A stretch of 54,767 nt of DNA from Myxococcales bacterium (GTDB taxonomy: Bacteria > Myxococcota_A > Bradymonadia > Bradymonadales > Bradymonadaceae): positions 1 to 54,767 of the forward strand of contig SKQC01000102.1 of assembly GCA_007119175.1 (NCBI GenBank), written 5' to 3'. Below are positions 3,748 to 54,767 of the stretch, piece by piece (the first letter of the stretch is position 1; every line of letters begins with the position of its first letter). Made by a program: the position numbers and the translations under genes. The notes under the pieces are model-generated. The model saw only the letters and a list, made by a program, of their open reading frames with translations, was not told the origin of the DNA and did no database searches.

Positions 3748-6700
3748 GGCCTGATAACCCGGACCTGGTCGCCGGCGATTCGAGCCCAGCGGTGTTTCTG
3801 ATACATCGACGTCAACTCCGCCGGCGGCGTATCGAAGGTCCCCGCAGTAGTCGCCCGCATACTGTAGACAAAGCGCACCGTCTGGTCTTCGCGGATCGAC
3901 CCGAAGGCCTCGATTCGGTCGTCGCGCACGTCGAAATGGTCGACGCTCCACTCATCGGAGCTATCAAACCAGTCGGGGCGCACATCGCCATCGGGACGCG
4001 GGTCCTCGACTTCAAACCCGCCGGGCAAACGATCGACGAGGGCGAGGTTCTGCATCGTCGTCTCCTCGCTGTGGCTCGCCTGCAACTCCACATATACCAG
4101 ATCGCCGACCTCTACTCGCTGAAGCGAAACGGGGTTGCCGTCGACGTCGCGGACCCGACGCTGCAACCGGAGCCCTTCGCTTCCAAATTCTGGCTGAGCC
4201 TGAGAATGCACACCCTCAGTGCGGCGAAATACCGACACAGGACCCTCGGGATCTTCGTCAAACACAAGCCTTACTTCGGGGTATTCGGAGGCCCGATGCA
4301 GCCGCCACGAACGAGAGCCGTCGTCGCCAACGACCTCCGGCTCCACAGTCGATCCGGCCGCCACAAGACGGGCATCGGGAATGCTGCCACTCCGCTCTTC
4401 GGCCCACCTGCCGAGGGCGGCGATGGACCATCCCAATTCGTGGAGATTCAACTCGCCGACCTCGGCATCGACGAGGCGATCGGCGACGCGTTCGACGAGA
4501 TCTTCGAGCAACTCGTGATCGGCACCGAAGACCTCGATGGCCACCTCCAAGATCAGTCCTTCATGGCGGGCGGGAGTGTAGTGATCGCCAAAAAACCGGA
4601 AAGTGCTCTCGTCGAATTCCGGCTCACGTATCAACGCCCGCAGATCATCTCCAACCGTCTCGTCGCCGGCCAGGTGAAGCGCAGCGGTCGCCAGTAGCGC
4701 TCGCTCATGGTCACGACCCGACGGGTCATCGGGCAACTCGCTTAAAAGCGCCCGGGCGGCCCGTCGATTCGGGCGGCCCTGCCTGGCCAGGACCCAGACC
4801 GCGAGATCGAGATCTTCGACCCCGTAGCGGCGCTGAACACGGCGATCGAGCCAGTCGAGGCCGTCTCGAAGAACCCACGCCGGTACGTCATGGCCGGCCT
4901 CGTCGGCCGTGGTCAGCATATCGAGGACGTAGGCCTGTCCCCAGGGGCCGACGGTGGCGCTCCCACCAGCCCAGTAGGCAAATTGCCCGGACGAGCGCTG
5001 CAGCCGCTCCACACCGCGGATTCCCCGTCTGATACGCCAATCTGCACCCCTTGTACTGGCCTCCGGATCGGCGGCCTTCAAAAGTCTGTCGAGGTAGGCG
5101 ACGGGTCGAATTCTGGCCACCGTATTGTAGAGATTGGTCCCCAGACGAAGCAGCGGATAGCGAAGCACGTGTTCGAGATGCACAAATGCCGGAGCCCGTG
5201 GGATGGACGTCACCCATAACTCGGTGGTCTCACTTGTGGGAAGCCACCCGTCGAGCTCTGAAAGCACATCGAATTCGCGGCTGTCCACGGAGTGATGCTC
5301 AAACTCCACTTCCGTCGGCCCGTCGGGATAAATCGGGACTCTCGCCGTATGGCGCGAATTTTCACCATTTCCGGACGCCTCGAATAAAAGCTGTGGTGCA
5401 CCGGCACGGCCGACCACCTCGACTTCAAAGTTGACCTGGCCGCGCTGGTCAGGGGCGAGCTGGAGTGAGCCCGTATCGTCACCGACAATTTCCAACTCCG
5501 CGGTGTCGTCTTCCATCAAGCTCATATCCGGCAAGGTCACGGCGCGAAGGTCGACGTCCACCGTAGTCTCGGTGGTATTCGTCACCGACAGCGGTACCTG
5601 AAAGCGATCGCCGTGAGTCGCAAACCGCGGCGCCGTCGCCTGCAATGCCAGGGGATCGCGAATCACCGTATGGTCTGTGGCTTCGCCGAGCCGCGCCCCG
5701 TCGACGACAACTGCCGAGATCTCGAGTTCACCGCGAAAATCGGGGATATCAAAGTCGACAGTGGCCCGTCCTTCGTCGTCGAGGTCGACAAGTCCAGACC
5801 ACATCGCCGTCGGATCGACGGGCATTATCGCCGGCGGCGCCGGAGCCGGTGGTGCATACGCCCCACCCCCGAATCGCTGCGGCGAGACATCGGCGTACCA
5901 GCCGACCGTATCGAAGGTCTCCACACCAAGCGCCCGTATGCTGAACAACTGCTCCAGTGGATCCTCGAATTCATGGCTCGCCATCGTCAGGATGCCGCGG
6001 TCGACGGCGGCGACGGCGACCCTCGCATCGGGGCCGGCCGTCTCACTGGTGACCTCCACGCTCAACGTGTCGCCGGGCTCCAGCTCCTCGGGCACGTTCA
6101 AGTCGACGTCGGCTCTCCAGCGGTCTCGGGCGACATTGACGCGCGAGACGCCAAATGCCCGGTCCAGCCCCTCAGGAGCGTCATCACCGGCCGGCACATA
6201 CAGCGCCGAGACATAGATATTGGGATCAAAATACTCCACTTCGACCTCCCAGCTATTTTCTCCGGCCTCCACATCGAGCCACTCCCAGGAGTCAACGCGG
6301 GCCGTCTCCACGGCCACCAACGCCCGGCCGTCGGCAGGGGCGTCGAAGGAAAACTCAGCCGTTTCACCGACGGTGATCTCGTCCGGTCCGCCAATATCGA
6401 GATGGGCCGGATCGTCGGGCCGCGGGTCCGTATCGCGCTGTCCCCACCCCCAGAATCGCCGCGGGGAGGCGACCTCCAGCTCGGAGACGGCTCCCTGAGC
6501 CTGGGCGCGAAAATAAAGGCCGACAGACGTTCCACGCGGCTCTGCCCGCATCGAAAAACGACCGTCGGCCACATCGACCTGTCGGCGTTCATCGACGCTC
6601 TCGTGGCGCTCACGCTCCCACTGAGTTCGGCCCTGGCGATAAATTCGCGTCGAGCTGTAGCGGATGGCGCCGAGTTCGAGATCGACGCTGTCGACGCCGT

Positions 6701-9422
6701 CGGCAACGCGCCCGTCGGAGCCGACGACGATGCCTTCGAGTCGGGCACCGTCGCTTGCATCGACCCGATCGTCGGGCGAACGCAGTCCGACTAACCTGTC
6801 GCCGGGCAGCAACGTCGTCTGCTCCTCGGCGCGTGAGGCCCGTCCGCTGCCGGCCTCAAAGACGGCGACCTCCACGTCGACACCGTAGATCGCCCGATCG
6901 TCGAAGTCAGAAGGCTCGCAGCGAAACTCAGCGAGCCCATTGGCATCGAGCCGCCCGTCGGTGCGCGCCGTCGTCGATTCGATCTTGTCCGAAAACGGCC
7001 CAAAATCGTATTCCGGCCACCGATCCTGAAACGGCTGTGCCGCCTCGAAGCGGCACTCCACCTCGAATTCAGCGTCGGCGGCCGGCGTACCGAAGAAATA
7101 CTCTGCCTCGATATCGCCGCCGAATCCTCCGCCGTCATAGACGATGATATCGTCGACATCGACATCGACATCGATTCGCTCCGGCACGAATTCCTCGACC
7201 GAGATTTGTTGGCTGACGAGCTCCTCGTCTCCCGAAAATATCTCGACGCTCCAGCTCCCGGTGGAGGCCATCTCGGGAATCTCATAGGTGAATTCGAAGG
7301 CACCCACCTCGTCGGTCTGGGCCACTGTACTAAAGACCTCCTGGCGCCGGGCATCAGTGAGTTCGATGCCCACGGGCAGTCCCGCCTCCGCGCGGTATTG
7401 ATCACCGCGAATAAATCCGGCAAATTTCATCTCCTCGCCGGGCCGATATAGCGTCCGCTCCCCGCTCAGAGCGCCCCGATAGGGTGGATCATCGCCATAA
7501 TCTCGTCCGCCGATCGAACCCTCGACGACCTCCGTTTTCGTATCCTCCCAGTCGACATAGGCCAACTCGTCGACGCCCTCGGCGACGACGGCAAAAGGCG
7601 GCTCATTTTCCAGATCGCCCCAATTTCCGCTCAACGCGCAATGGCCGCCGCCGTCAGTTGCGCATTCCGCCAACACGCGTCCGTTCTGGCGCACCAATTC
7701 TAGATTCACATCGGCGATCGGCTGTGCGGAGTCGGCATCGATCGTCCAAACCCAGACCTCATCAACCTCGGATTCGACGTGGCTGGCGCGCTTGGCGATT
7801 AATTGCAGATCGCTGACGATGAAGCGATGACTATCGTTGAGTCCTCCCTGAAATGGGGCCGAAACCTCGATCTGATAGGCGCCCGGTTGCGGCTCGCCGA
7901 CGAGTTCCATCAGATCGATATAGGAGTGTTGAACCTCTTCGGGGCCCGGATCGAGCTCCAGGTATTTCTCGGCAATCGCAAAGGAAGCAGCTCCGCCCAT
8001 CGCGTCGCCTCCGGAGAGCCAGAACGTAAAGTGATGCCCCGCTGCATGGCGAACCACGACCCGGGCCATCTCCACGTCTCGATGGCGAATTGGAACTCGC
8101 GCCCAATCGGAGCGCTCCAGATATCGTCCATCGGCATCGATGGCCAATTCCGGCGATGGCGCCCTCGGCTCCAGGAGCTCTTCGCGTCCCTCATAGAGTT
8201 CGGCAGAATGCTCGCCCCAATCGCCAGTGCGCAGAGCGAGACCGACCGGTCCGCGCACCCCGTCGAGGTCGAGTACCAGATCAAAGCCATGCTGATGGTC
8301 GACGACCGAGACGCCGGCGTCGACGTCGAGTTCGACGAGCTCCAGCGCTCGCTGAGAGTCGACGTCACAGCGGCGCGAGACATCACGAATACTGCTCCTG
8401 ATTTCACGGTCCCAATAGCTGCGCCTGGTCTCGGCAACGGCCGGGTCGTGACACAAGACGCGCACCGTCGGACTTCCGCCGCGTTCATAGAGCCCGACTG
8501 CGCGAATCTCGAGGGTCTCCGTATCCGTGCCAACCTGGATCGACTCATCGACCTCATCCATCGGATCGCCCCCCAGTGTCGACGTCAATTGAGACCCGCC
8601 GCTGAGGTGAATTCCGTCGACGGCTCCTGCGAAGTCAATGGAGAGCGAGCGCAGGCGCACGTCGATGACGCGATCGTCGCGTTGGCTGTAGGCGACGCTT
8701 TCCAGCAAAGCGCCGTCCAGGGCCCACGAAAGTTGATCTTCTACGGCGGCGACATCGACGGGCGCCGAAAACCGCAGCTCGACGTGAGCAAATGCACCGA
8801 CCGGCCTTGCTGCCGAGATATCGACCAACTCCAGCGGTGGCGTCTCAAATGTCGTTGCAGGTGACTCGTCGAATTCCACGAGCTCCACGTCTTCGTCTCC
8901 ATCGTCGCTCTCACCGAATACAAATTCGATGACCTCAAACTCGACATCGTAGCTCTCTGCCGGCTTTAGCTCACCGTCGAATTCAATGCGGAAGACGGTG
9001 TGGTTGTCCGTTAGATTGGGCCGGTCGACATCGACTGTATTGCCGGCCTCATCAGTGATCGTGATCACCGTCCCCGGTCCGATCTGTGGATGGCCTCGAC
9101 GCACGACGGAACGATCGACGACAGCCACCAACCCCGAAGGTACAGCCCCCGGCTTACCGACGGCCCGCATCGCCACATCCCAGCGCTCCGGATCGACGAT
9201 ACGCGCTTTGTCATCCGGGTCGAAATCATCGCGCACAGCACCAGCGATCTCCGGTTTGGGAATCTCCGCAGATCGGTCGCGCTCGGCCACCTCACCGGGC
9301 TCCGGCACATCGTCGACTTCGTCGCCGCAATCACAGGCCGATGTCCCGAGCACCAATACAAGAATGAAAACCGCTATGATTCGCTGGAAAACCCCATCCA
9401 CTCTTTGAAACGGTACAAGCAT
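3744..9422 (-). CDS. alpha-2-macroglobulin family lipoprotein (YfhM/ECAM-like), thioester motif absent
   Basis: 1892 aa with lipobox LVLGTSAC and length and architecture typical of bacterial A2M, sitting directly upstream of pbpC. At the position aligning to the YPYGCLEQ thioester site it reads YPLLRLGT (nt 5136-5159). There is no Cys anywhere in the C-terminal 900 or so residues. Confidence 0.9.
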   Translation of the reverse strand: MLVPFQRVDGVFQRIIAVFILVLVLGTSACDCGDEVDDVPEPGEVAERDRSAEIPKPEIAGAVRDDFDPDDKARIVDPERWDVAMRAVGKPGAVPSGLVAVVDRSVVRRGHPQIGPGTVITITDEAGNTVDVDRPNLTDNHTVFRIEFDGELKPAESYDVEFEVIEFVFGESDDGDEDVELVEFDESPATTFETPPLELVDISAARPVGAFAHVELRFSAPVDVAAVEDQLSWALDGALLESVAYSQRDDRVIDVRLRSLSIDFAGAVDGIHLSGGSQLTSTLGGDPMDEVDESIQVGTDTETLEIRAVGLYERGGSPTVRVLCHDPAVAETRRSYWDREIRSSIRDVSRRCDVDSQRALELVELDVDAGVSVVDHQHGFDLVLDLDGVRGPVGLALRTGDWGEHSAELYEGREELLEPRAPSPELAIDADGRYLERSDWARVPIRHRDVEMARVVVRHAAGHHFTFWLSGGDAMGGAASFAIAEKYLELDPGPEEVQHSYIDLMELVGEPQPGAYQIEVSAPFQGGLNDSHRFIVSDLQLIAKRASHVESEVDEVWVWTIDADSAQPIADVNLELVRQNGRVLAECATDGGGHCALSGNWGDLENEPPFAVVAEGVDELAYVDWEDTKTEVVEGSIGGRDYGDDPPYRGALSGERTLYRPGEEMKFAGFIRGDQYRAEAGLPVGIELTDARRQEVFSTVAQTDEVGAFEFTYEIPEMASTGSWSVEIFSGDEELVSQQISVEEFVPERIDVDVDVDDIIVYDGGGFGGDIEAEYFFGTPAADAEFEVECRFEAAQPFQDRWPEYDFGPFSDKIESTTARTDGRLDANGLAEFRCEPSDFDDRAIYGVDVEVAVFEAGSGRASRAEEQTTLLPGDRLVGLRSPDDRVDASDGARLEGIVVGSDGRVADGVDSVDLELGAIRYSSTRIYRQGRTQWERERHESVDERRQVDVADGRFSMRAEPRGTSVGLYFRAQAQGAVSELEVASPRRFWGWGQRDTDPRPDDPAHLDIGGPDEITVGETAEFSFDAPADGRALVAVETARVDSWEWLDVEAGENSWEVEVEYFDPNIYVSALYVPAGDDAPEGLDRAFGVSRVNVARDRWRADVDLNVPEELEPGDTLSVEVTSETAGPDARVAVAAVDRGILTMASHEFEDPLEQLFSIRALGVETFDTVGWYADVSPQRFGGGAYAPPAPAPPAIMPVDPTAMWSGLVDLDDEGRATVDFDIPDFRGELEISAVVVDGARLGEATDHTVIRDPLALQATAPRFATHGDRFQVPLSVTNTTETTVDVDLRAVTLPDMSLMEDDTAELEIVGDDTGSLQLAPDQRGQVNFEVEVVGRAGAPQLLFEASGNGENSRHTARVPIYPDGPTEVEFEHHSVDSREFDVLSELDGWLPTSETTELWVTSIPRAPAFVHLEHVLRYPLLRLGTNLYNTVARIRPVAYLDRLLKAADPEASTRGADWRIRRGIRGVERLQRSSGQFAYWAGGSATVGPWGQAYVLDMLTTADEAGHDVPAWVLRDGLDWLDRRVQRRYGVEDLDLAVWVLARQGRPNRRAARALLSELPDDPSGRDHERALLATAALHLAGDETVGDDLRALIREPEFDESTFRFFGDHYTPARHEGLILEVAIEVFGADHELLEDLVERVADRLVDAEVGELNLHELGWSIAALGRWAEERSGSIPDARLVAAGSTVEPEVVGDDGSRSWRLHRASEYPEVRLVFDEDPEGPVSVFRRTEGVHSQAQPEFGSEGLRLQRRVRDVDGNPVSLQRVEVGDLVYVELQASHSEETTMQNLALVDRLPGGFEVEDPRPDGDVRPDWFDSSDEWSVDHFDVRDDRIEAFGSIREDQTVRFVYSMRATTAGTFDTPPAELTSMYQKHRWARIAGDQVRVIRP

Positions 9423-22130: not shown

Positions 22131-23246
22131 TCAGCCGAGTAACTCCTCGATGGGCGTGTAGGCAAGCTGTAGGCTGTCTGCCACCACTTTATGCACGCAT
22201 TGCCCGCGATAGGTATTGACGCCCAATTTCAACGGCGGATCGCCGGCCACCGCTTCTTCGAGTCCCTGATTGGCAATCGCCAATCCGTAGGGAAGCGTGG
22301 TGTTATTTAACGCATAGGTCGAGGTCTGCGCCACGGCCCCCGGCATATTGGCCACACAATAGTGGACGACGCCATCGACCTCGTAGGTCGGCGCCTCGTG
22401 AGTGGTGGGCCGGCAAGTTTCGATACATCCACCCTGGTCGACGGAGACATCGACGACGACGCTTCCCTCGGGCATCTGTGAGATATGCTCTCGAGTTACC
22501 AGATGGGGGGCCTTCGCCCCGGGAATCAGCACCGCTCCCACCACCAGATCGGCATCGCAGACCTCCTGGGCGATCATCTCGCGACTCGAATATTGAGTGT
22601 CGATGGAATTGCCGAAAATATCGTCCAGATAGCGAAGCCGATATAGATCGACATCCAGCAGAGTGACACGCGCGCCCATTCCGACGGCGATCTTGGCGGC
22701 GTTGGTTCCCACCACACCGCCGCCGATAATCACGACCTTGGCCCGCTTTACGCCGGGCACACCGCCCAGAAGAATGCCCTTTCCACCTTCTTCGCGCTCC
22801 AGGCAGCGAGCACCGACCTGCACCGACATCCGGCCGGCCACCTCGCTCATCGGCTCCAGTAGCGGAAGCCGGCCGTCGTCGAGTTGAATGGTCTCATAGG
22901 CCACGGCGGCCACTTCCCGCTCCAGCAACGCCTCGGCAAGATCCGGCACCGCCGCCAGATGAAAATAGGTGTATACAATCTGGCCGCGTTCCATCAGCTC
23001 ATATTCCGGCTGTAGCGGCTCTTTGACCTTTACGATCATCTCCGAGCTCGCCCACACCTCTTCGGCTGTATCCAGGATCGTCGCCCCCACCGCCTCATAG
23101 TCCTCGTCGGGAATCGCACTGCCCTGGCCGGCTCCGCTCTGCACGACGACCTCATGTCCGTTTCGCACATATTCACTGACCCCGGCCGGTATCAGCCCGA
23201 CGCGGTACTCATTGCTCTTAATCTCTGTCGGCACGCCGATCTTCAC
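22131..23246 (-). CDS. ald: alanine dehydrogenase
   Basis: [23 protein letters not shown]-terminus and [16 protein letters not shown] fold. I prefer GTG 23246 (AGGAG 7 nt upstream) over the TTG 23270 of the track ORF. Confidence 0.9.
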
Positions 23247-23460
23247 GATAAGACTCCTGGTCGAATGCAATTTATCGATGAATCATCACTGTAAGCGTTC
23301 AGCTCCTGGGGCCCGGGTTCAGTCCCTGGGGCCCGCGGCCAGCCTGGCCGCCTTTCGGTCTGACAGCCCGAGCCGTAGAGAACGCTACCTCGTCACTTTC
23401 TGGGCGAACTATAACCGGGCCCCATGACACACGCAATACGGCGGAGTGCACGGCTGGCTC

Positions 23461-23656
23461 AGGGTGTGTCTGAGAACTGCTAACCGAGCACCCCGAGGGC
23501 ACTTCTTCGCTTCGCTCAGGGCGCAGGGCTAGATGATTTTGGCACCATTTTTGATCGAAAAACGCAGGTTTAGCAGCGCTATATCGAGTATTTTCGACGG
23601 AAATGGTGTGAAAATCAGCCGCCAACTGCGACCGAAGCGGTTTTCAGACACACCCT
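23461..23656 (+). repeat. 196-nt rod-like imperfect palindrome, copy A (candidate structured RNA or REP/MITE-like element)
   Basis: Nested inverted repeats: 23461-23481/23636-23656, 23534-23550/23601-23617 and 23555-23561/23591-23597. Shares conserved blocks with copy B. Its G-T pairs are tolerated only as G-U on the plus strand. Confidence 0.7.
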
Positions 23657-23733: not shown

Positions 23734-24288
23734 ATGGAGCTACAAAAAGCCCTCCTGACCCGACGCACCATCCACAATTATACCGCCGATCCGATCCCGG
23801 AGGGGGCCATCGAACGCGCCTTAGAGGCGGCGATCCGGGCGCCGAATCACAAGCTGACCAATCCCTGGCGCTTTACCCGCGTCGGCCCCGAAGTCCGCAA
23901 AAAGCTCACCGAGTTGGGCATCGAGCTAAAATGCGCCAAGAAAAATAAATTCACCCCGAAATTCCGCGATTATCTGCGCCAGAAATACGGCAATCCGGCG
24001 GAATTGGTCGCCGTCAGCCAGATTCTCAACGACGATCCCTTCCGTCGCCGCGAGGACTACGCCGCCGCGGCCTGCGCCATTCAGAATTTCTGCCTGTCCT
24101 TATGGGGCGAAGACGTGGGCTCGAAGTGGAGCACCGGCCAGATGTCGCGCCACGAATCGACCTACGAGATGCTCGATATCGATCCCGACGAAGAGGAGAT
24201 CATCGCCTTTGTCTGGGTCGGCCAACCAGAAGAGATCCCCGATCCGCCCCGCGATCCCCTGGAATCGGTAGTGCGCACGACGGATTAA
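23734..24288 (+). CDS. nitroreductase family protein
   Basis: LLTRRTIHNYTADPIPEGAIERALEAAIRAPNHKLTNPWRF is a typical nitroreductase N-terminus. Length is 184 aa. Confidence 0.85.
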   Translation: MELQKALLTRRTIHNYTADPIPEGAIERALEAAIRAPNHKLTNPWRFTRVGPEVRKKLTELGIELKCAKKNKFTPKFRDYLRQKYGNPAELVAVSQILNDDPFRRREDYAAAACAIQNFCLSLWGEDVGSKWSTGQMSRHESTYEMLDIDPDEEEIIAFVWVGQPEEIPDPPRDPLESVVRTTD

Positions 24289-24419
24289 AGGGGCAGTGAT
24301 TTGCTGGCCGACGTGCTTTTCGGCCCTATTATCGCCTCCATCACCACCTACGGGAGCTGAACCACGCGGTTCGGCCGACTCCTTTTTTTTGACCCGACCT
24401 CCACCGGGGGGCACCAGCG

Positions 24420-27011
24420 ATGGCGATGGCGACGTCGACTCCACCGAAGCATCGTATCTTCGTATCTGGCGCACTTTTCATCTTCGCTGCGATGTGGGGC
24501 TGTGCCGCGGACTCGGAGCGCTCTGCGAACGTCAACGAAAGACCCGCACCATCACGTATCTTCGCCTTCGACGCACCGAACTCCCGAGCTGCATTGGTGC
24601 GTCAGCTCGTCGATCGCAGATTCGACGAGGTCAAAAACCCCAAAAAACGTCCCTCCTCGATCGTATTGGCCAAAAAAACGCGCTCCTGCGGCAGCGGCGA
24701 CGACACAGACTGCGAGGACTGGCAGCTAGATGTGCCCCTCGATGTCAGCCCGAACACCGATGAGCGCCTCCAAGACATCGACTGGCAGCTTCTATTCGAC
24801 GAGGCATCACCTCGCTCGCTGAGCCGCGCCCTCGGCAGATCGGTGAGCATCTCCGATGGCGAGACGTCCTGCGCTGACGGCATCTGCACGCGCCGAGCGA
24901 TTCGGGTCTATGCCGCCGAATCGAAGGAGACGATCGTCGACGCGCGAGAGCGCTCCTACGACAGCGCCCACGAGAGAAGCTGGGCGCGAGCCAGAAAGCG
25001 ACTCTCAACAATGGACGACGACCAGTCGGTCACGGTCGGCGTTTTATTTTCTCCGCATACCCGCCCCGTCAGCAAACATTCCGTAAATTGGTTCGATGTC
25101 GACGATCCAAAACTGGTCGCCAAAAAACTCCAGCTTGAACACGAGCGCCGAATAAATGCCGGCCACAAAACGAGCCGCACCCGTTTCGACAAACTCGGTA
25201 TTTGCCGCTGGCTTCGCCCCTATTCATTCGCCAACGGCGCCGTCATCGAATGTGTGCCCCATGAGCTCACCCAACTGATCGATGAACGACCCGAATTTGT
25301 GGCCGGCGTATATCTCGACGAAAAACCAGTCATCGGCGACGGATCGGCATTCCGCGACCGCTCCGGCAGCGCCTTGAACGCCTATCTCAACGGCACCGAC
25401 GCCCGAACTGGCGCTCAGCCCTCACCGCTGACCGGTCGCGACGAAATCACCGTGGCCTACGCCGATCCAAAGGGGTTTTACCAGACCAATCGCCACCCGG
25501 CGTTCTTCGAGCGCGAACCGACCTGCATCGGTCGATTCTGCACATTTCGATCCCGGGTTCGCACCCTGGAGCGCTGCGACGCCCAGTCCTGCTGGAGTGC
25601 CCCCGATCAGGGCACACCGCTGAGCCACGGCTCCAGAGTCATCGGTGGTTTTCAGTCCATATTAGACGGCCAGGATCCGGACCTTACCAACCAGTCGGCG
25701 CGGCGCCAGCGCTCCTACGGCGCCTTCGAGGCCGGACTTCACCTCTACGATACCGACGACTCCGGCAACGCCGCCCTGAGCGCCCTGGAAGAAGCCGCGA
25801 GACTACACGACGGCCGGACCACCGCCGATATCTGGGGTTATTCGGCCTCCACCAACGGCTGTGATGACCCACGCGGACGCTGGGTGCCCTGGACGGCGGC
25901 CATGGACACCGCCTACGACCGCGGGCTACTCGCCGTACAGATCACCGGAAATTCCGTGGAGCGCCACCGCTCGTCCTGCACCACGACCGGTCTGGCCAGC
26001 CGCAGCGACTCCCTCGTCGTCGGTGGATTCGCCGATACGCGCCAAACCCTGATGAGTCAGTGGCGCTACGACTCCGCCCCATTGTCCTGGGCCTCAATCA
26101 CAGACCTGCAGGCATCCGATCGCTGTCCCGGCGAGCAATTATCGTGGAATGAAGATCGATGCTACTCCTCGGCAGAAGGCGGCGGCGATCTTTTCGTCGG
26201 CGATAAACTCCGCCCGCGAGTGCGCTCAGTCGTCGACCTGACAGCGCCTTCAGGCCGACGCTTCTCCGCCGTTCGCACCGGTCGCGGCGACAACGACTAC
26301 CAGCAGGTTTGCTGCGGCTCCAGCCACGCCGCCCCCAAAGTGGCCGCCGCCGCGGTCAGCCTCCGAGACTGGGGCTACCGGCGCGGTCTCGCCATCTACG
26401 ACGACCCGACTCTCCTCTACGTCATGATGTTGCTCGGCGGTGATTTTACCGGCGAATTTGCCTCGCGAAGAGCTGTAGACCCCCTCGACCAATACGCCTC
26501 GCGCCCCACCGACGACTATCGCCGCCGCCGTGGTTTTTCCCGAATCTGGGGTGCCGGCAGACTCCACGTCCAGCGATTGCTCGGCGAGGGGTCGACCCTC
26601 GATTCACCTTTTTCATGGGCTTTAGGCACCATGACCATCGACGACGAGACCGTCATCTGGCGCCGGCTCGGCATTCCACCGACGCCTGCCGACACCAGCG
26701 AGATTGTCGCCCTCTTCGCATGGGACGAGCCGGGCCTGTCGGCACAGCCCGACGACGCGGCAGCCCGGATCAATTTCACACTCCGGGCGGCGCCGCCGAA
26801 TATCGACCGCACCTGCCCGGCCCATCCCAACAATCCCATGACGGTCATCGGCAACGACATCAGTTACGACACAAAAAAGCGCATCGCCCTCGGCCCTGAG
26901 CTGGTCGCCCAAAACCCCCATATTATCGGCCAATGCATCTACGTGGGCATCCACGCCATAGACCTCCCCGGCCCTCGCGAGGGGGCATATATCACCTACC
27001 GAAGCCGATGA
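24420..27011 (+). CDS. divergent subtilase (peptidase S8)-like lipoprotein
   Basis: Lipobox FAAMWGC. Candidate catalytic motifs are VAYADPKG (Asp), SHGSRVIGG (His), VQITGNS (oxyanion Asn) and CCGSSHAAPKVAAAAVSL (Ser, compare GTSMAAPHVAG). There are large insertions and a domain of about 330 aa that I could not assign ahead of the candidate Asp motif. Confidence 0.55.
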   Translation: MAMATSTPPKHRIFVSGALFIFAAMWGCAADSERSANVNERPAPSRIFAFDAPNSRAALVRQLVDRRFDEVKNPKKRPSSIVLAKKTRSCGSGDDTDCEDWQLDVPLDVSPNTDERLQDIDWQLLFDEASPRSLSRALGRSVSISDGETSCADGICTRRAIRVYAAESKETIVDARERSYDSAHERSWARARKRLSTMDDDQSVTVGVLFSPHTRPVSKHSVNWFDVDDPKLVAKKLQLEHERRINAGHKTSRTRFDKLGICRWLRPYSFANGAVIECVPHELTQLIDERPEFVAGVYLDEKPVIGDGSAFRDRSGSALNAYLNGTDARTGAQPSPLTGRDEITVAYADPKGFYQTNRHPAFFEREPTCIGRFCTFRSRVRTLERCDAQSCWSAPDQGTPLSHGSRVIGGFQSILDGQDPDLTNQSARRQRSYGAFEAGLHLYDTDDSGNAALSALEEAARLHDGRTTADIWGYSASTNGCDDPRGRWVPWTAAMDTAYDRGLLAVQITGNSVERHRSSCTTTGLASRSDSLVVGGFADTRQTLMSQWRYDSAPLSWASITDLQASDRCPGEQLSWNEDRCYSSAEGGGDLFVGDKLRPRVRSVVDLTAPSGRRFSAVRTGRGDNDYQQVCCGSSHAAPKVAAAAVSLRDWGYRRGLAIYDDPTLLYVMMLLGGDFTGEFASRRAVDPLDQYASRPTDDYRRRRGFSRIWGAGRLHVQRLLGEGSTLDSPFSWALGTMTIDDETVIWRRLGIPPTPADTSEIVALFAWDEPGLSAQPDDAAARINFTLRAAPPNIDRTCPAHPNNPMTVIGNDISYDTKKRIALGPELVAQNPHIIGQCIYVGIHAIDLPGPREGAYITYRSR

Positions 27012-27039
27012 TCCCCCCCTGCAGAATGCAGCTTATTTA

Positions 27040-27207
27040 GTTCCCGTCCGGAAATTCCGATTTGGAGCAGAGGCGAGATGAAATCGACGAGATGGCCATA
27101 TCGCAAAACCGAAGGGATATCCGTAGGTTATTTCAAGTGTTGAGCGAATGGCCAGATCGCGATTTCAGCCGCCACCTGCGACATTCATGGGGTTTCCGGA
27201 CGGGAAC
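27040..27207 (+). repeat. 168-nt rod-like imperfect palindrome, copy B (same family as 23461-23656)
   Basis: Outer stem 27040-27058/27189-27207 (17 WC + 2 T-G pairs). Inner stems are tgaaatcg/cgatttca and tggcca/tggcca. Conserved block tcagccgccacctgcgac at 27165-27182. It lies between two convergent gene ends. Confidence 0.7.
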
Positions 27208-27210
27208 CGT

Positions 27211-27438
27211 TTACGTGGGGCGCACCGTCCAGATTTCACGACCGGTCTTCAACAATTTTTTGTCGATCGTCACCTCCGTGCCCTCGCGCATGGCCCGCTC
27301 GTGGATCTGAGCTTCGTCGGCCTTATCGCCGTCGCAAAAGCCGATTGGATTGCGCGACCGAGGTGATTTGATCATCACCTGAAATTCGCCGTGATCCCAC
27401 TTCGTCTGTGTCTCGTTGCTATGAGGCTCAATGGCCAT
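27211..27438 (-). CDS. hypothetical small protein (75 aa)
   Basis: High third-position GC (about three quarters G/C by eye) like neighbouring genes. Sits 35 nt downstream of the PpiC gene on the same strand. No family recognised. Confidence 0.4.
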   Translation of the reverse strand: MAIEPHSNETQTKWDHGEFQVMIKSPRSRNPIGFCDGDKADEAQIHERAMREGTEVTIDKKLLKTGREIWTVRPT

Positions 27439-34272: not shown

Positions 34273-34473
34273 TCTCCTAAGGCAACCAAATTTGGCGTAT
34301 CATCCAAATTGCGTCGGCAACGGTGCGCACCATAGTGATCACCGACTCCCGTTACAACGCCCGCACCAGCAGCCTGTGAATTTCCCCGACCCTGCCTTGG
34401 CCTGCCCTTTGCCGGGCCCTAGACGGAACGTGATTTAAATGAAACGCGGTATCGGCGTGATGATTGGGCCAAA

Positions 34474-34491
34474 GTTCGGTTCGAACCGAAC
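34474..34491. promoter_or_regulatory. perfect 18-bp palindrome gttcggttcgaaccgaac in the pepF/cls divergent intergenic region (candidate operator)
   Basis: The 18-mer is exactly self-complementary. It lies 202 nt upstream of pepF and 153 nt upstream of the cls ATG. Confidence 0.4.
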
Positions 34492-34643
34492 GCAGGCGTA
34501 GCATCGCTACTTCAAGCGAGGATCGGCCGAAAGATGGTTCAATCAGCCGGCGAGGCATATGTTTCAGTTAAATCGTCTTTCGTTTAATGTTGTCGATATG
34601 CTGCCATCGCGCCCTTTCCACTTTCCGGACGCCGGCCTCGTCG

Positions 34644-36119
34644 ATGTCGTTGAACGAATTTTTCACACTTTACGCGGCCATCGAGCCCTATTTTCCGATC
34701 GTCTTTACGGGCCTCGCCGTCACCGCCGCCGCATTGACCTCCGTTCACGTCATCTTGTCGCGCCGCGATCCGGGCTCATCGATTGCCTGGATCGCCCTGG
34801 TATGGCTGGCTCCTCTGGTCGGTGTGGTCGCCTATCTGATCTTTGGAATCAACCGAATCCGTCGCCGGGTAAAAAGCCTGCACATCTTCGAGGAGCATTA
34901 TTATAGCGAGCCCGCCGTCGAGCCCGTCACAACCGATCAGCTCGCCGAATTTCTCCAGGAGGACTGCCGCCATCTCGCCCAACTGCAGCCTCTTGTCGAC
35001 AACGTCGTCAATCGGGCCCTGTTGCCGGGCGCCCGTCTCACTCCCCTCTTCGACGGCGATCAGGCCTACCCGGCCATGCTGGAGGCCATCGCTGAAGCAC
35101 AGGAGACGATCAACCTCGTCAGCTATATCTTCGATAACGACGAGGCCGGCCGCGACTTCGTCGATGCCCTGGCAAAAGCCCGCAATCGAGGCGTCGAGGT
35201 CCGCGTTCTCATCGACGCCGCCGGATTGCGCTATACCTTTCCCTCTATTATGCGCCGGCTCAAGCGAGCTGACGTGCAGGCCTCGCGCTTTCTCCCATCG
35301 ATATTTCCGCCCCACATCATGACCATGAATCTGCGCAATCACCGCAAGATCATGGTCGTCGACGGCAAGCTGGGATTTACGGGAGGAATCAATATCCGCT
35401 CCCATCATCTGCTGGAGAGTCATCCCACATTTCCGGCCCGCGATCTGCATTTTAAAGTCGAGGGGCCCGTTGTCGCCCACCTCCAGGAGGTATTCGCCGA
35501 CGACTGGCAATTTTCCACAGACGAAGAATTGCGAGGCGAGAAATTTTTTCCCCGTCTTCAAAAGGTGGGAAAGACCCTGGCGCGGGGAATTCCCGATGGC
35601 CCCGATGAAGATCTCGACAAATTGCGATGGACCATCAAGGGGGCGATTGCTTCGGCACGAGATCGCGTGCGGATTATGACGCCCTATTTTATCCCCGACC
35701 CGCCGATGGTCTCCCTATTGGCGGTGGCCGCCCTGCGCGGTATTCAGGTCGATATTATCTTGCCCGCCGTCAACAATCTGCCCATCGTCAACTGGGCCTC
35801 GAAGGCTCATCTTCGGCCGCTGCTCAACCGGGGATGCCGCATCTTTTATACCCCGCCCCCCTTCGATCACTCGAAGTTGATGGTCGTCGACGGGATGTGG
35901 TTTTTATGCGGCTCGGCAAATATTGATCCACGAAGCCTGCGACTGAATTTTGAGTTTAATCTTGAATGCTGGGACGAGGAGCTGGCCACCTCGCTCGACG
36001 ACTATCTCTCGACGCGAATCGACGAGGCATCGGAGTTGACCCTTGAGGAGTACGACAACCGCTCGCGCCTCTTAGAACTACGCGACGGGGCCGCCGCACT
36101 GCTCTCCCCTTATCTCTGA
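34644..36119 (+). CDS. cls: cardiolipin synthase (two PLD/HKD motifs)
   Basis: HRKIMVVDGKLGFTGGINI and HSKLMVVDGMWFLCGSANID, plus two N-terminal TM helices. ATG 34644 preferred over the track start at 34587. Confidence 0.9.
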   Translation: MSLNEFFTLYAAIEPYFPIVFTGLAVTAAALTSVHVILSRRDPGSSIAWIALVWLAPLVGVVAYLIFGINRIRRRVKSLHIFEEHYYSEPAVEPVTTDQLAEFLQEDCRHLAQLQPLVDNVVNRALLPGARLTPLFDGDQAYPAMLEAIAEAQETINLVSYIFDNDEAGRDFVDALAKARNRGVEVRVLIDAAGLRYTFPSIMRRLKRADVQASRFLPSIFPPHIMTMNLRNHRKIMVVDGKLGFTGGINIRSHHLLESHPTFPARDLHFKVEGPVVAHLQEVFADDWQFSTDEELRGEKFFPRLQKVGKTLARGIPDGPDEDLDKLRWTIKGAIASARDRVRIMTPYFIPDPPMVSLLAVAALRGIQVDIILPAVNNLPIVNWASKAHLRPLLNRGCRIFYTPPPFDHSKLMVVDGMWFLCGSANIDPRSLRLNFEFNLECWDEELATSLDDYLSTRIDEASELTLEEYDNRSRLLELRDGAAALLSPYL

Positions 36120-54500: not shown

Positions 54501-54767
54501 ACGGTAGACCTTCATCAACTCGTCCCACCGCTCACTGCGCCGGTAAATTCCCTCCATCGCTTCCAGTGCGGCGAGGTTTTCCTCCTCCACTTCCAGAATG
54601 GCCTCGAATTGCGTCAGCGCCGCATCGAGGTGCTCGACTTCCTCAGAGAGCACCCGTCCAAGCAGAAGGCGAAGCCGCAACTCATCGGCGGTCTCACGCT
54701 CCTCCTGGAGGGCCTCGCGATAATGATCCACCAGCGTCGGCCAGGAGTCAGATTCTCCGGCAGCCTC
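45546..54767 (-). CDS. giant TPR-repeat protein (>3,073 aa, 5' end outside the window) with a non-TPR C-terminal domain
   Basis: The reading frame stays open upstream of the track start (GTG 54731), reading EAAGESDSWPTLV-DHYREAL to the window edge. There are dozens of roughly 76-aa double-TPR units (AI..Y..IL..DP....AL..LE.LY.....W.EL..IL). An acidic linker lies at nt 53916-54263. The C-terminal 308 aa or so (45549-46472) are not TPR-like. Confidence 0.85.
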   Translation of the reverse strand, partial: EAAGESDSWPTLVDHYREALQEERETADELRLRLLLGRVLSEEVEHLDAALTQFEAILEVEEENLAALEAMEGIYRRSERWDELMKVYRHRLELESDVDARVGILQGMAEIAEVEAGDTTTAIARYNEALELDGRNAQTLAELHRLYSDEGDYADLAEVIRQEIDLIERTARTAARQRERQSVEPAQIIGNASTEPVDSGFGDEFTGSDEGVDDVLADLHDEGEGSEPEEVVEAADIEVDETSDEAAMADEISDVEEADSQTADEVGETDLDAIDLDAPATYREEEIETLTALRFELGTVCIEHLDEVEEAVGALGKVLHWRPDHAEALEVVEALLEDSLYSGLVTDILEPVYEVFGQWESLIDVLSIQADEADEDSEARELHRRIGALLIEEIGDAPRAFDSYGKVIHLSPGDEDGREQLYRIAHALESWDRYVDLCEEITPHIDDEDLRVDYYYTLAQVNADYRQEYGEAQRYLEEVHALRPEDARALDELEELFISTESWRDLLDAVDRKIEWFDDPDEIQQLRFRKAKIWEELLEDSQRAIEIYEAILEEDPENLDAYFNLDRIFEHEGMWDELARDLEAELELVDESKRHEVKARLAQVLEAHLGNAERAVDLYEEILEAEKDNEMANRAMEELMQKESAPRERISCIMEPLYVERDDAERLIGALEVQVEERVDPEQRTELLHRIASLHEDERGDVASAFRTYARALSDDVEGQSTLDHLYRLAAEGDGHAELVGVFEREAEEQIDPDVQRDMLRRAAAVYIEPLGELDMATERLHAVLELFPADLETVEELEAIYRETQQWADLVDILVTKSELVEEDEARVELLHQAGTLYEDILESPQDAIDIYNRTLAIDEADSHSIDRLEVLYTSLERWHDLLDVYRRKLELADDDEGRKDLLFVMGAIYQEHLEQPQDAIEMYRQITELDPEQRGALEKLDELFEATEQWHELLEILERQLELSADGDETEALQYRVGRLWEEHLGDGLRAIEIYREILERNPEHGASVWALEEMVERGDNEAEAARVLQPLYESKEQWESLVHVHRLLIEASHEPERKIELYKEVGSILEEQLQDPAEAFASYVEALETEPGRQEILETLERLAVELDAWEVLIEQIDERLDDITDFEVVASLNLRVARIYEEELHQAPPAIERFQKVLEVEPGRKEAILALDRLYQQEGQWEELAEILKTRIYNSEDLEKTLELRLRLGTLYQMALEQPESAIATYQEVLLEEPENPTAIENLEQMFMEGRAVERCADILEPFYLERGQHEKVVEIYLHRLEMIDDPFQRFDLLMQVAGIYLDQLDDVDEALGAYGGALVERPDDEQVLAEIERLAEVTQDWGKAAEIYADALESPHNTDDTLLGLWIRLATVLDERMESYQDAEMAYLQALELDPTHEKALKALDRIYADQARWEDLAGILERRIDGAYDEFEVVELNYQLAQVFQDQLTDFERAVETYETMLSVQPDHEQALESLEQIHSALEAWEPLYDVLERRAQLTHDPDEQADYYGRMARIAEEMLERKLDAVDLWQRVTELQPDNRQALGELRRLYVDEERWEDLVAVLHREVELTVEPDEQLGLYESLGTIYGGYLHDEVAAQDAWNAALQINPVHLEALESLKELTTRQADYQQLAQIIERLISHDEVAQERKLSLWEELGEIQSEMLMNPPAAIDAWKNVLSLNPEHDQALDELEQLYLQEAHWEEAAHILGMKADRAVDDETRLMYLTRVADLWQTKLMEPDEAVRYLQMILEIDPTNMDASRSLETIYQEQGSEEAMAELAGLYLDRAEIVDDVFARVDNLRHAARIFEEHLGQPENSLLVILSAVDADTLDDEELMGEVERLTRETGLWEEAIERFEAVVDELGDTPEAADLHTQIGKWYANELDQPDDGAYHLQRARMIEPDNQEVLRTLEELYRELASWPELAQILQTRVELTSDPEEQAELWRALGELFEMQMADLEQSIAAYREILVIDPTDILAMESLERVYEAFGHWEELVDILGRKAEATYDPDLIVEIKSRAASIWEEELQDEAQAIAAYRDVLTVDQAHIPSLQALERLYTQSGEWDELIDIYQQQLSLTHEPDEQVQLYGKMASVFENHFEDLDRAVEAYNNVLMVDPGSTTAIENLERLYRDLERWFELVDTLQRHIELVDDRDKKVGLYSELGQLQQHEVGDPHAAIEAYEQAVELDPVSPGIWAELAALHEETSNWERAVDAYERLVEQVDDDSYRAEVYHRLGALLEGQLHDHASAEDAYMSALRVEPTHPDVLEAVRELLGTQQHWDSLIRVLKEAVEAERDLDAKAALLAEIGKVYEENVGDEVNALSYYEEALENNPRLSAAALPLIEVSFREQRYERAVPLLEMTLEEYRSAEVDDEERHRRHLQLAQANEELAQPEEALQQYRKAYELLSTDRDTLQGFGRLLHERGELEQASKVLQSLQLHHEDKLEMAQLVDVYYRLGSIRQQLNDMRKAGDYFERALEIEQHHRPTLTKRIEVAEAQEKWDEVVDYSRWLMETEEDPKVRFATISRVGDLLANKLDRPPEAVAAYIEALEIEPNSVVVLRKLLDLYTKTKQWHEAVGILMRIIEQEDNQSRIAKYYYTAAVIYRDEIEDPMKAVELFEKALDVDAPNMLKAFEAIDRILTKLKSWRELARAYRKMLHRVNERDDEKMEYVKVQLWQNLGEVYRTRMGDYETAIEAYKIAVGLKEDDEKLRLILAELYEKDGTNVSGVIEQHRELIKLDRFRVESYRKLFKSYIETKEYDRAWCMAAALSFLQSASEQEETFFQKYLGASLPAAQGKFNQEMFKKLYHPDQDVLITYIMSVLGQGLRPLYSMKSIKDWGVHKRKDKLDLQEQRLFNKIYQYVTQTTNLLPAPQVYLKGDQALGMRNANIDPPTVIIGGDVHQKSDDRELAFIIGKSLTWMLPQHYMGSIGQPTEFLKMYFMALMDMTDPSLGLAKQMGEQGATCKQQIADIPGPMLVQAQKAMKKFLDKGENPNLSQWLKAAEHTSIRMGLLLSGNIHTAAACIKSDLVPISKASVKDKIREMVLFSISEEYFQLREDLGLAIGK

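Follow-up and report, generated by a model that had tools for sequence, protein, structure and literature searches.

Three diverged copies of one hairpin repeat of about 167 nt lie within 11 kb, all on the plus strand, in the 54,767-nt stretch of DNA analysed here (the window). The copies, which we call A, B and C, are homologous, and their conserved feature is the ability of the plus strand to form a single rod of about 70 bp, with an asymmetric loop and an apical domain, rather than the sequence of the helices. The best-supported reading is that they form a new, sequence-unrelated family of a known kind of small palindromic intergenic repeat, that of ERIC, RU-2, bcr1 and Correia. We judge the chances about even for the fuller explanation, that these are old, diverged palindromic repeats resembling ERIC, bcr1 and Correia, transcribed in the untranslated regions of plus strand genes and selected as RNA hairpins.

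Results

Genomic context of the repeats

The window organism encodes a PBP1C with 45% identity to that of Persicimonas caeni (Bradymonadales), the remaining named matches being to Bradymonadaceae and Myxococcota. The gene content is of a housekeeping kind (PBP1C, an alpha-2-macroglobulin-like protein, kinases, hydantoinases, GDH, an ECF sigma/anti-sigma pair, MutY and others), 24 of the 31 genes lie on the minus strand, and the window holds no tRNA. An ENA contig (k141_1232855, 69,982 nt) is 99.9% identical to the window, shares its end at position 54767 and extends about 15 kb further beyond position 1; the window itself seems to be a complete contig. The genes around the repeats are as follows.

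22131-23246, minus strand: alanine dehydrogenase (ald); Pfam and public gene calls
23734-24288, plus strand: nitroreductase; Pfam and public gene calls
24420-27011, plus strand: 863-aa S8-like gene; Pfam and public gene calls
27211-27438, minus strand: 75-aa reading frame, convergent with the S8-like gene; public gene calls
34587-36119, plus strand: PLD-domain (cardiolipin-synthase-like, cls-like) gene, directly 3' of C; Pfam

The nitroreductase and S8-like genes (23734-27011) make up a plus strand unit that is flanked 5' by A and 3' by B. A ends 77 nt short of the nitroreductase ATG, with the ald start about 215 nt away on the other side, in a spacer that the sequence-only reading, an earlier description of this DNA, had put at 444 bp and that measures 463 nt from the longest ald frame and 487 nt from the public ald start at 23246. 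B, which begins 29 nt past the stop codon of the 863-aa gene, directly adjoins that of the convergent 75-aa frame. C occupies the divergent spacer between an M3 peptidase gene (minus strand) and the PLD/cardiolipin-synthase-like gene (plus strand) and runs up to the first ATG of the PLD-like frame, which leaves about 57 nt to 34644, the likelier start. The PLD-like frame opens at ATG 34587, abutting C, with a more natural N-terminus from ATG 34644 (MSLNEFFTLY...), and the public gene calls hold no record of a PLD-like protein starting at 34587.

Two of these spacers contain other small features. Upstream of A, at 23296-23432, there is a direct repeat, TCCTGGGGCCCG, with an inverted partner, CGGGCCCCA; a structured element at this position was rejected, as its fold is close to that of shuffled sequence (z -1.6 on the plus strand, -0.7 on the minus strand). 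The motif ACTATA(A/G)C(G)CCGGGC was picked out by eye in the ald-nitroreductase spacers of both the window (23409-23424) and a distant relative, contig L116 (ca. 5190-5208); the two spacers are otherwise too diverged to give a meaningful alignment. Read on the minus strand, the TATAGT within this shared motif could be a candidate -10 element of an ald promoter. Between the stop of the 863-aa gene and B, at 27019-27039, a small hairpin, CTGCAGAATGCAG, is followed by CTTATTTA; it is terminator-like in a consensus scan and weak (-4.5 kcal/mol, z -1.8), and B may have been inserted just 3' of the original terminator.

Three rod-like hairpins

The three elements and their conserved parts have the following positions.

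23461-23656, plus strand: element A, whole rod-like imperfect palindrome, 196 nt; repeat finder, folds and covariance model derived from B
23486-23517, plus strand: side hairpin specific to A, 32 nt, GAGCACCCCGAGGGCACTTCTTCGCTTCGCTC; fold and alignments
23527-23536, plus strand: A, 5' half of the conserved core, GGC-TA-GATGA; invariant columns 39-48
23560-23589, plus strand: A, conserved apical domain, AAACGCAGGTTTAGCAGCGCTATATCGAGT; invariant columns, helix 3
23615-23632, plus strand: A, 3' half of the conserved core, TCAGCCGCCAACTGCGAC; 18-mer
27040-27207, plus strand: element B, 168 nt; inverted repeats and folds, source of covariance model R1
27072-27081, plus strand: B, 5' core, GGCGAGATGA; alignment
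27165-27182, plus strand: B, 3' core, TCAGCCGCCACCTGCGAC; 18-mer
34420-34586, plus strand: element C, 167 nt, the most diverged copy; fold scan, covariance model and BLAST
34454-34463, plus strand: C, 5' core, GGCGTGATGA; alignment
34543-34551, plus strand: C, 3' core, TCAGCCGGC; alignment

Element A had been described as a palindrome of three nested inverted repeats, and a repeat finder recovers all three. The outer repeat (23461-23481 with 23636-23656) is 21 nt long and 90% Watson-Crick, the exceptions being G.T at 23474/23643 and T.G at 23478/23639; the middle repeat (23534-23550 with 23601-23617, 17 nt) contains a G.T pair at 23542/23609 and a single mismatch, G.G at 23541/23610; the inner repeat (23555-23561 with 23591-23597) has seven perfect pairs and encloses 29 nt. 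Folding against dinucleotide shuffles, the check proposed along with that description, bears the structure out: the plus strand reaches -99.9 kcal/mol compared with -57.0 ± 4.2 kcal/mol for the shuffles (z -10.3), with none of 200 shuffles as good, and the minus strand reaches -86.9 kcal/mol (z -7.2, RNA fold). The side hairpin of A is inserted 25 nt into the 5' arm, is lacking from B and C, and leaves a unit of 164 nt when it is removed.

The diverged second copy that had been suggested at 27040-27207, our B, is real, and folds at -93.3 kcal/mol on the plus strand (z -10.1) versus -79.5 kcal/mol on the minus strand. C, at 34420-34586, was absent from the earlier list and was found through a sliding-fold scan which flagged 34411-34590; its plus strand folds at -67.9 kcal/mol (z -5.5) with nine G.U pairs, its minus strand at -49.2 kcal/mol (z -3.2). 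Across the whole window B is the top outlier of the sliding-fold scan and A is among the top few, A being understated because its 196 nt exceed the 180-nt scan window.

One family with a conserved core

A covariance model built from B alone, run unfiltered over the 55-kb window, returned A (33.7 bits, E 2e-6) and C (24.6 bits, E 3e-4) as its best non-self matches, both on the plus strand only, with all remaining hits at or below 17.6 bits. Sequence-only BLAST aligns A with C over 98 nt (E ca. 6e-5), and the 18-mer core TCAGCCGCCAMCTGCGAC occurs only in A and B, with a chance expectation of 0.08. Identity between copies is roughly 60-70%. Setting aside the 32-nt side hairpin of A, the copies share one layout, with 37-39 nt to GATGA, 78-83 nt to TCAGC and 37-39 nt to the end, and all three carry GGC(G)-N-GATGA in the 5' arm, TCAGC-CG(C/G)C in the 3' arm and the apical consensus AA-CG-AGG..TA.C...G.TA..TC.AG.

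Written as RNA, the core is asymmetric and invariant in all three copies, GGCG-N-GAUGA standing opposite UCAGC-CGSC in the order G-C pair, A.G mismatch and UGA/UCA; the 5' strand also bears a bulge of 1-2 nt. A K-turn or C/D box was rejected for this core, the required GA being absent from the 3' strand.

The ends of the elements behave differently from the core. Each copy has its own terminal inverted repeats (21 nt in A, 15-20 nt in B, about 9 nt in C), and the termini differ among copies (AGGGTGTGTCTGA, GTTCCCGTCCGG and TAGACGGAACG), that of A having no second occurrence in the window. Similarity among the copies stops exactly at the hairpin base, beyond which the flanks are unrelated. Direct reading of the flanks revealed no target-site duplication at A, B or C: A and C have no direct repeat, and B has only an offset TTTA...CG-TTTA. 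With target-site duplications and termini conserved between copies both lacking, mobility of the three elements is possible rather than shown.

Pairing is kept while sequence drifts

We aligned A, B and C rung by rung and counted pairs in an N-padded, structure-guided alignment (A7). Across the 67 pairs counted, 94.5% of cells form standard pairs; 42 pairs have changed on both sides and 22 are invariant, values that none of 500 column shuffles reach, and sliding the 3' partner by 1-3 columns lowers pairing to 33-43%. These covariation counts are inflated, because the alignment was made to fit the structure and each of the three sequences already forms a hairpin by itself; they show that three homologous hairpins have diverged while remaining hairpins, and are no independent discovery of the fold. 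Invariant pairs are concentrated in the core (columns 39-48 with 141-150) and in the apex. A same-species contig, L001, carries both A and B, and the sole strain difference inside an element (B position 27116, L001 position 6383) turns a G.U pair into A-U, preserving the structure.

One alternative is that the elements are functionless, decaying palindromes, the remains of old MITE or foldback sequences. Three diverged copies are known, the protein searches described below give no sign of a recent burst, and C is clearly the weaker hairpin (z -5.5), all of which would fit such decay. Decay, however, would break pairs, and here 94.5% of cells pair at roughly 60-70% identity, with 42 of 67 pairs changed on both sides and the bulge and A.G mismatch retained in all three copies. 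The remaining part of this alternative, that mutation bias produced the difference between strands, is taken up with the strand data below.

Coding potential and transcription signals

No reading frame is conserved among the copies; the frames opening at the ATG inside GATGA run for 41, 21 and 13 aa in A, B and C, and a conserved small peptide was rejected on these lengths. No sigma-70-like promoters or U-tract terminators were found around A, B or C, and an intrinsic terminator was rejected, there being no U-tracts at the copies. A sigma-54 promoter in A was also rejected: TGGCAC-N5-TTGA is without the invariant GC and has no counterpart in B or C.

These results bear on the possibility that A, B and C are stand-alone small RNA genes, three paralogous rods of ~170-200 nt with promoters of their own, acting in trans or sequestering a protein through the GAUGA/UCAGC loop and the apex. 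Paralogous small RNAs are often clustered, and the three copies lie within 11 kb; as in RNAs that bind proteins, the helices co-vary around a conserved loop and apex, the plus strand is favoured in three of three copies (see below), and a moderately U-rich stretch, AGUUUUCCUUU, follows A. Yet the copies have no promoter-like sites and no common upstream motif, they cease to be similar at the base of the hairpin, a U-tract terminator is lacking from B and C, and the family has no Rfam match and was not found in 66 kb of related genomes. We therefore regard independent small RNA genes as rather improbable.

The plus strand is the better folder

For all three copies the plus strand folds better than the minus strand with RNA parameters, by 13.0 kcal/mol in A, 13.8 kcal/mol in B and 18.7 kcal/mol in C. 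Their plus strand folds contain 21 G.U pairs versus one A.C symmetric mismatch (binomial p ~1e-5), symmetric mismatches on this strand being mainly purine-purine and including tandem G.A/A.G. The plus strand also folds better under single-stranded DNA parameters, by 5.5-10 kcal/mol. The sequence-only reading had taken the pattern of G.T pairs in A as that expected of an RNA transcribed from the plus strand. The preference for the plus strand holds in all three copies, with G.U far in excess of A.C, and this makes the strand argument much stronger than it was from A alone, but the DNA folds lean the same way and leave the choice of RNA less secure. RNA is favoured over single-stranded DNA as the folding molecule, which falls short of proof.

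Composition sets the elements apart from their surroundings: they have a GC skew of +0.11 versus -0.11 for the window, and a GC content of 49-53% versus 59%. Because the plus strand GC skew is negative and 24 of 31 genes lie on the minus strand, we take the plus strand to be the lagging-strand sequence, that is, the leading-strand template. Replication-linked deamination therefore predicts the opposite asymmetry, with A.C mismatches rather than G.T on the plus strand, and if the hairpin formed on the lagging-strand template, which is exposed, the better-folding strand should be the minus strand. Orientation relative to genes is uninformative, because every copy lies between opposite-strand genes, and one shared orientation of three copies has a chance of 0.25.

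If the elements were merely decaying, their strand asymmetry would have to come from mutation bias such as C-to-T deamination of the non-template strand. Deamination tied to plus strand transcription would likewise enrich plus strand G.T pairs, but the elements are skewed in composition in the opposite sense to the background, and the replication-linked bias predicted from that background gives the wrong mismatches. With the pairing data, this makes neutral decay highly improbable as an explanation.

The DNA folds also raise the possibility of a mobile or recombination element that acts as folded plus strand single-stranded DNA, the substrate of a strand-specific enzyme encoded elsewhere. Hairpins in single-stranded DNA are substrates of HUH/Y1 transposases, on REPINs or IS200/IS605-derived elements, and of integron integrases, on attC sites. 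Recognition of attC and IS608 hairpins tolerates variable sequence and relies on a kept structure with a conserved bulge and mismatch; A, B and C keep a structure with bulge and mismatch while their sequence varies, all three share one orientation, the plus strand folds better with DNA parameters too, and target-site duplications and conserved terminal repeats are lacking, as would be expected of such an element. Against it, the window contains no transposase, RAYT or integrase gene, the attC R''/R' consensus is missing from the ends, and each copy is a single 167-nt rod, neither a pair of small subterminal hairpins nor a doublet of 20-40-nt REPs. IS200/IS605 elements have a known bias towards the more exposed single-stranded DNA at the replication fork, whereas the plus strand, as leading-strand template, is the less exposed, opposite to that bias. 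We think a single-stranded DNA element of this type quite unlikely.

Distribution in related genomes and sequence collections

The genes flanking the elements are syntenic housekeeping genes in relatives. In syntenic relatives with 44-50% identity in the S8-like protein, the ald-nitroreductase spacer is 215 nt long, no more than 7-36 nt lie beyond the S8-like gene, and both sites are free of palindromes. Similarly, no family members were found in 66 kb of six related contigs (L115-L117, 23 kb; L118-L120, 43 kb) with model R1 or with fold and motif scans. One of these relatives, L120 (ENA ERZ27266004 k141_501040, 54% PBP1C identity), has, in the region 6581-6860, a different, GC-rich rod-like palindrome at 6595-6738, with an 18-nt outer and an 18-nt inner arm; part of its left half recurs in direct orientation at about 6806-6860, within the spacer of 467 nt that follows PBP1C, and the GATGA/TCAGC core is absent. 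The L120 palindrome suggests that the clade carries several unrelated palindromic repeat families.

A match to a known Rfam or REP family had been named in advance as an outcome that would count against a novel element in A. The search of A returned no Rfam family and no known REP family; over A, B and C together there was no Rfam match at E up to 10, and nothing in the whole window reached gathering score. A blastn search of a plasmid collection with A and B gave nothing relevant. A, B and C were also translated in six frames, concatenated and compared with 5.8 billion proteins, with nothing found at E up to 10; these proteins thus include no reading frame called across a close copy, which argues against a recent high-copy burst.

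Pattern searches covered larger collections. In the genome collection, AGATGA-N65-95-TCAGCCGCCANCTGC matched at least 111 loci, all by chance or in coding sequence (for example, a conserved cyanobacterial gene), and among the matches listed only the window's own sequence is rod-like. A stricter two-gap pattern gave one chance match, inside a coding region, in the metagenome collection and zero in the viral collection. All these patterns date from before the discovery of C, were derived from A and B, and do not match C, which makes them too strict for diverged members.

Comparison with known repeat and RNA classes

The sequence-only reading had left A as a leader, a separate small RNA or a REP/MITE-like repeat. 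With three homologous copies, a repeat family is shown; the strict MITE definition, by shared termini and target-site duplications, failed. Each copy does have terminal inverted repeats, and there are several copies (three in 55 kb) without a transposase frame, but no termini common to the copies or to a parent insertion sequence were found, nor any target-site duplication. The window itself holds no insertion sequence. We keep the family apart from MITEs in the strict sense, since shared termini and target-site duplications were looked for and are absent.

The features of ERIC/bcr1-type repeats are a closer fit. The elements are imperfect palindromes of ~120-170 bp which form one long stem-loop (z -10.3, -10.1 and -5.5), and they show compensatory changes (42 of 67 pairs, 94.5% of cells, in an alignment fitted to the structure); similarity in sequence to a described family was found neither in Rfam nor in the plasmid collection. 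MITE-like repeats form long RNA stem-loops that are co-transcribed and influence message stability (PMC3184786). ERIC (~127 bp) and the 168-bp RU-2/YPAL are intergenic palindromes reported to be co-transcribed with their neighbours and to affect message stability (PMC3184786, PMC2759123), and A, B and C are like them in the 120-170 bp size class, the imperfect intergenic palindrome and the single long stem-loop. ERIC-type repeats have terminal inverted repeats, target duplications and flanking TA (PMC3184786). The present elements share no sequence with them, come from another phylum, have variable termini and no duplication, and are known from three copies. The bcr1 repeat of the Bacillus cereus group (~155 bp) shows compensatory changes at the RNA level (PMC3184786), a signature like that measured in A, B and C, the sequences being unrelated; it has 5-bp direct repeats at its flanks and a non-conserved distribution between close strains (PMC3184786).

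Correia elements (CREE) of Neisseria, about 104-157 bp, are alike in their inverted repeats, their conserved core and their location in untranslated regions, a location that is probable for A, B and C from their gene context. Correia RNA hairpins bind RNase III and are then cleaved or protected (PMC2649163). They differ in having conserved 26-bp terminal repeats, TA duplications, an IHF site, promoter-forming ends and hundreds of near-identical copies, none of which was found for A, B or C. REPINs are hairpin-forming, non-autonomous intergenic elements whose hairpin is preserved in evolution (PMC3116915). They are made of two GC-rich REPs of 20-40 nt with conserved distal ends, occur in hundreds of copies and go with a RAYT gene, whereas A, B and C are each a single 167-nt rod conserved in its middle and apex, have a GC content (49-53%) below the window's 59%, and have no RAYT/Y1 gene in the window.

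Other classes were considered and rejected. Integron attC sites do not fit, since the ends of the elements depart from the R''/R' consensus (RYYYAAC ... GTTRRRY), the window has no integrase and the flanks are syntenic housekeeping genes. 6S RNA, SRP RNA, retron msr-msd, IS110 bridge RNA and TnpB/IscB guide RNA were rejected for having no Rfam match and no partner gene in the window, where no transposase, integrase, reverse transcriptase, RAYT/Y1, IS110, TnpB or IscB gene is present.

Discussion

Our preferred explanation, that of old palindromic repeats kept as RNA hairpins in untranslated regions, would work as follows. A non-coding repeat unit of ~167 nt would sit in the strand-switch spacers of an uncultured, Bradymonadales/Myxococcota-like chromosome. 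The transcript of the nitroreductase/S8-like operon would contain A in its 5' and B in its 3' untranslated region, and that of the cls-like gene would contain C in its 5' untranslated region. As part of the message, this long and imperfect RNA duplex would either protect an end or offer a site to a factor specific for double strands, RNase III for example, and the conserved loop is the putative feature by which it would be recognised. The copies were probably dispersed by insertion, because similarity stops at the hairpin base, the flanks are unrelated and the spacers of relatives are correspondingly shorter.

The positions of the copies count for this explanation, A and C lying 57-77 nt upstream of plus strand starts and B 29 nt after a plus strand stop. 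Counting against it are the lack of a sigma-70-like promoter or U-tract terminator at any copy, and the fact that the known copies number only three, all within 11 kb. The strand asymmetry of 5.5-10 kcal/mol under DNA parameters, being in the same direction, counts against a role of RNA alone and makes a role in single-stranded DNA possible.

A more far-reaching version, which we hold to be doubtful, is that the elements represent an undescribed structured RNA class of a Bradymonadales-like lineage, a rod of ~167 nt whose loop and apex would be a dedicated protein-binding or processing signal that coordinates unrelated plus strand genes, namely the nitroreductase/S8-like operon and the cardiolipin-synthase-like gene. 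Such a class may spread via an RNA or single-stranded intermediate, without conventional transposon ends.

Palindromic repeats acting as RNA hairpins in untranslated regions have already been described in enterobacteria, Neisseria, Bacillus and a few further groups, and the general concepts are unchanged by the family described here. Because its copies are so diverged, conservation of the fold, the loop and the strand bias can be read from three sequences. The covariance model could be used to annotate such repeats in metagenome-assembled genomes, where they otherwise inflate intergenic space or are miscalled as genes, and the GAUGA/UCAGC loop is a concrete target for finding the factor that recognises the repeat. 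If our preferred explanation of A, B and C as hairpins selected in untranslated RNA is true, it adds a sequence-unrelated repeat family from a barely sampled Myxococcota/Bradymonadales-like lineage.
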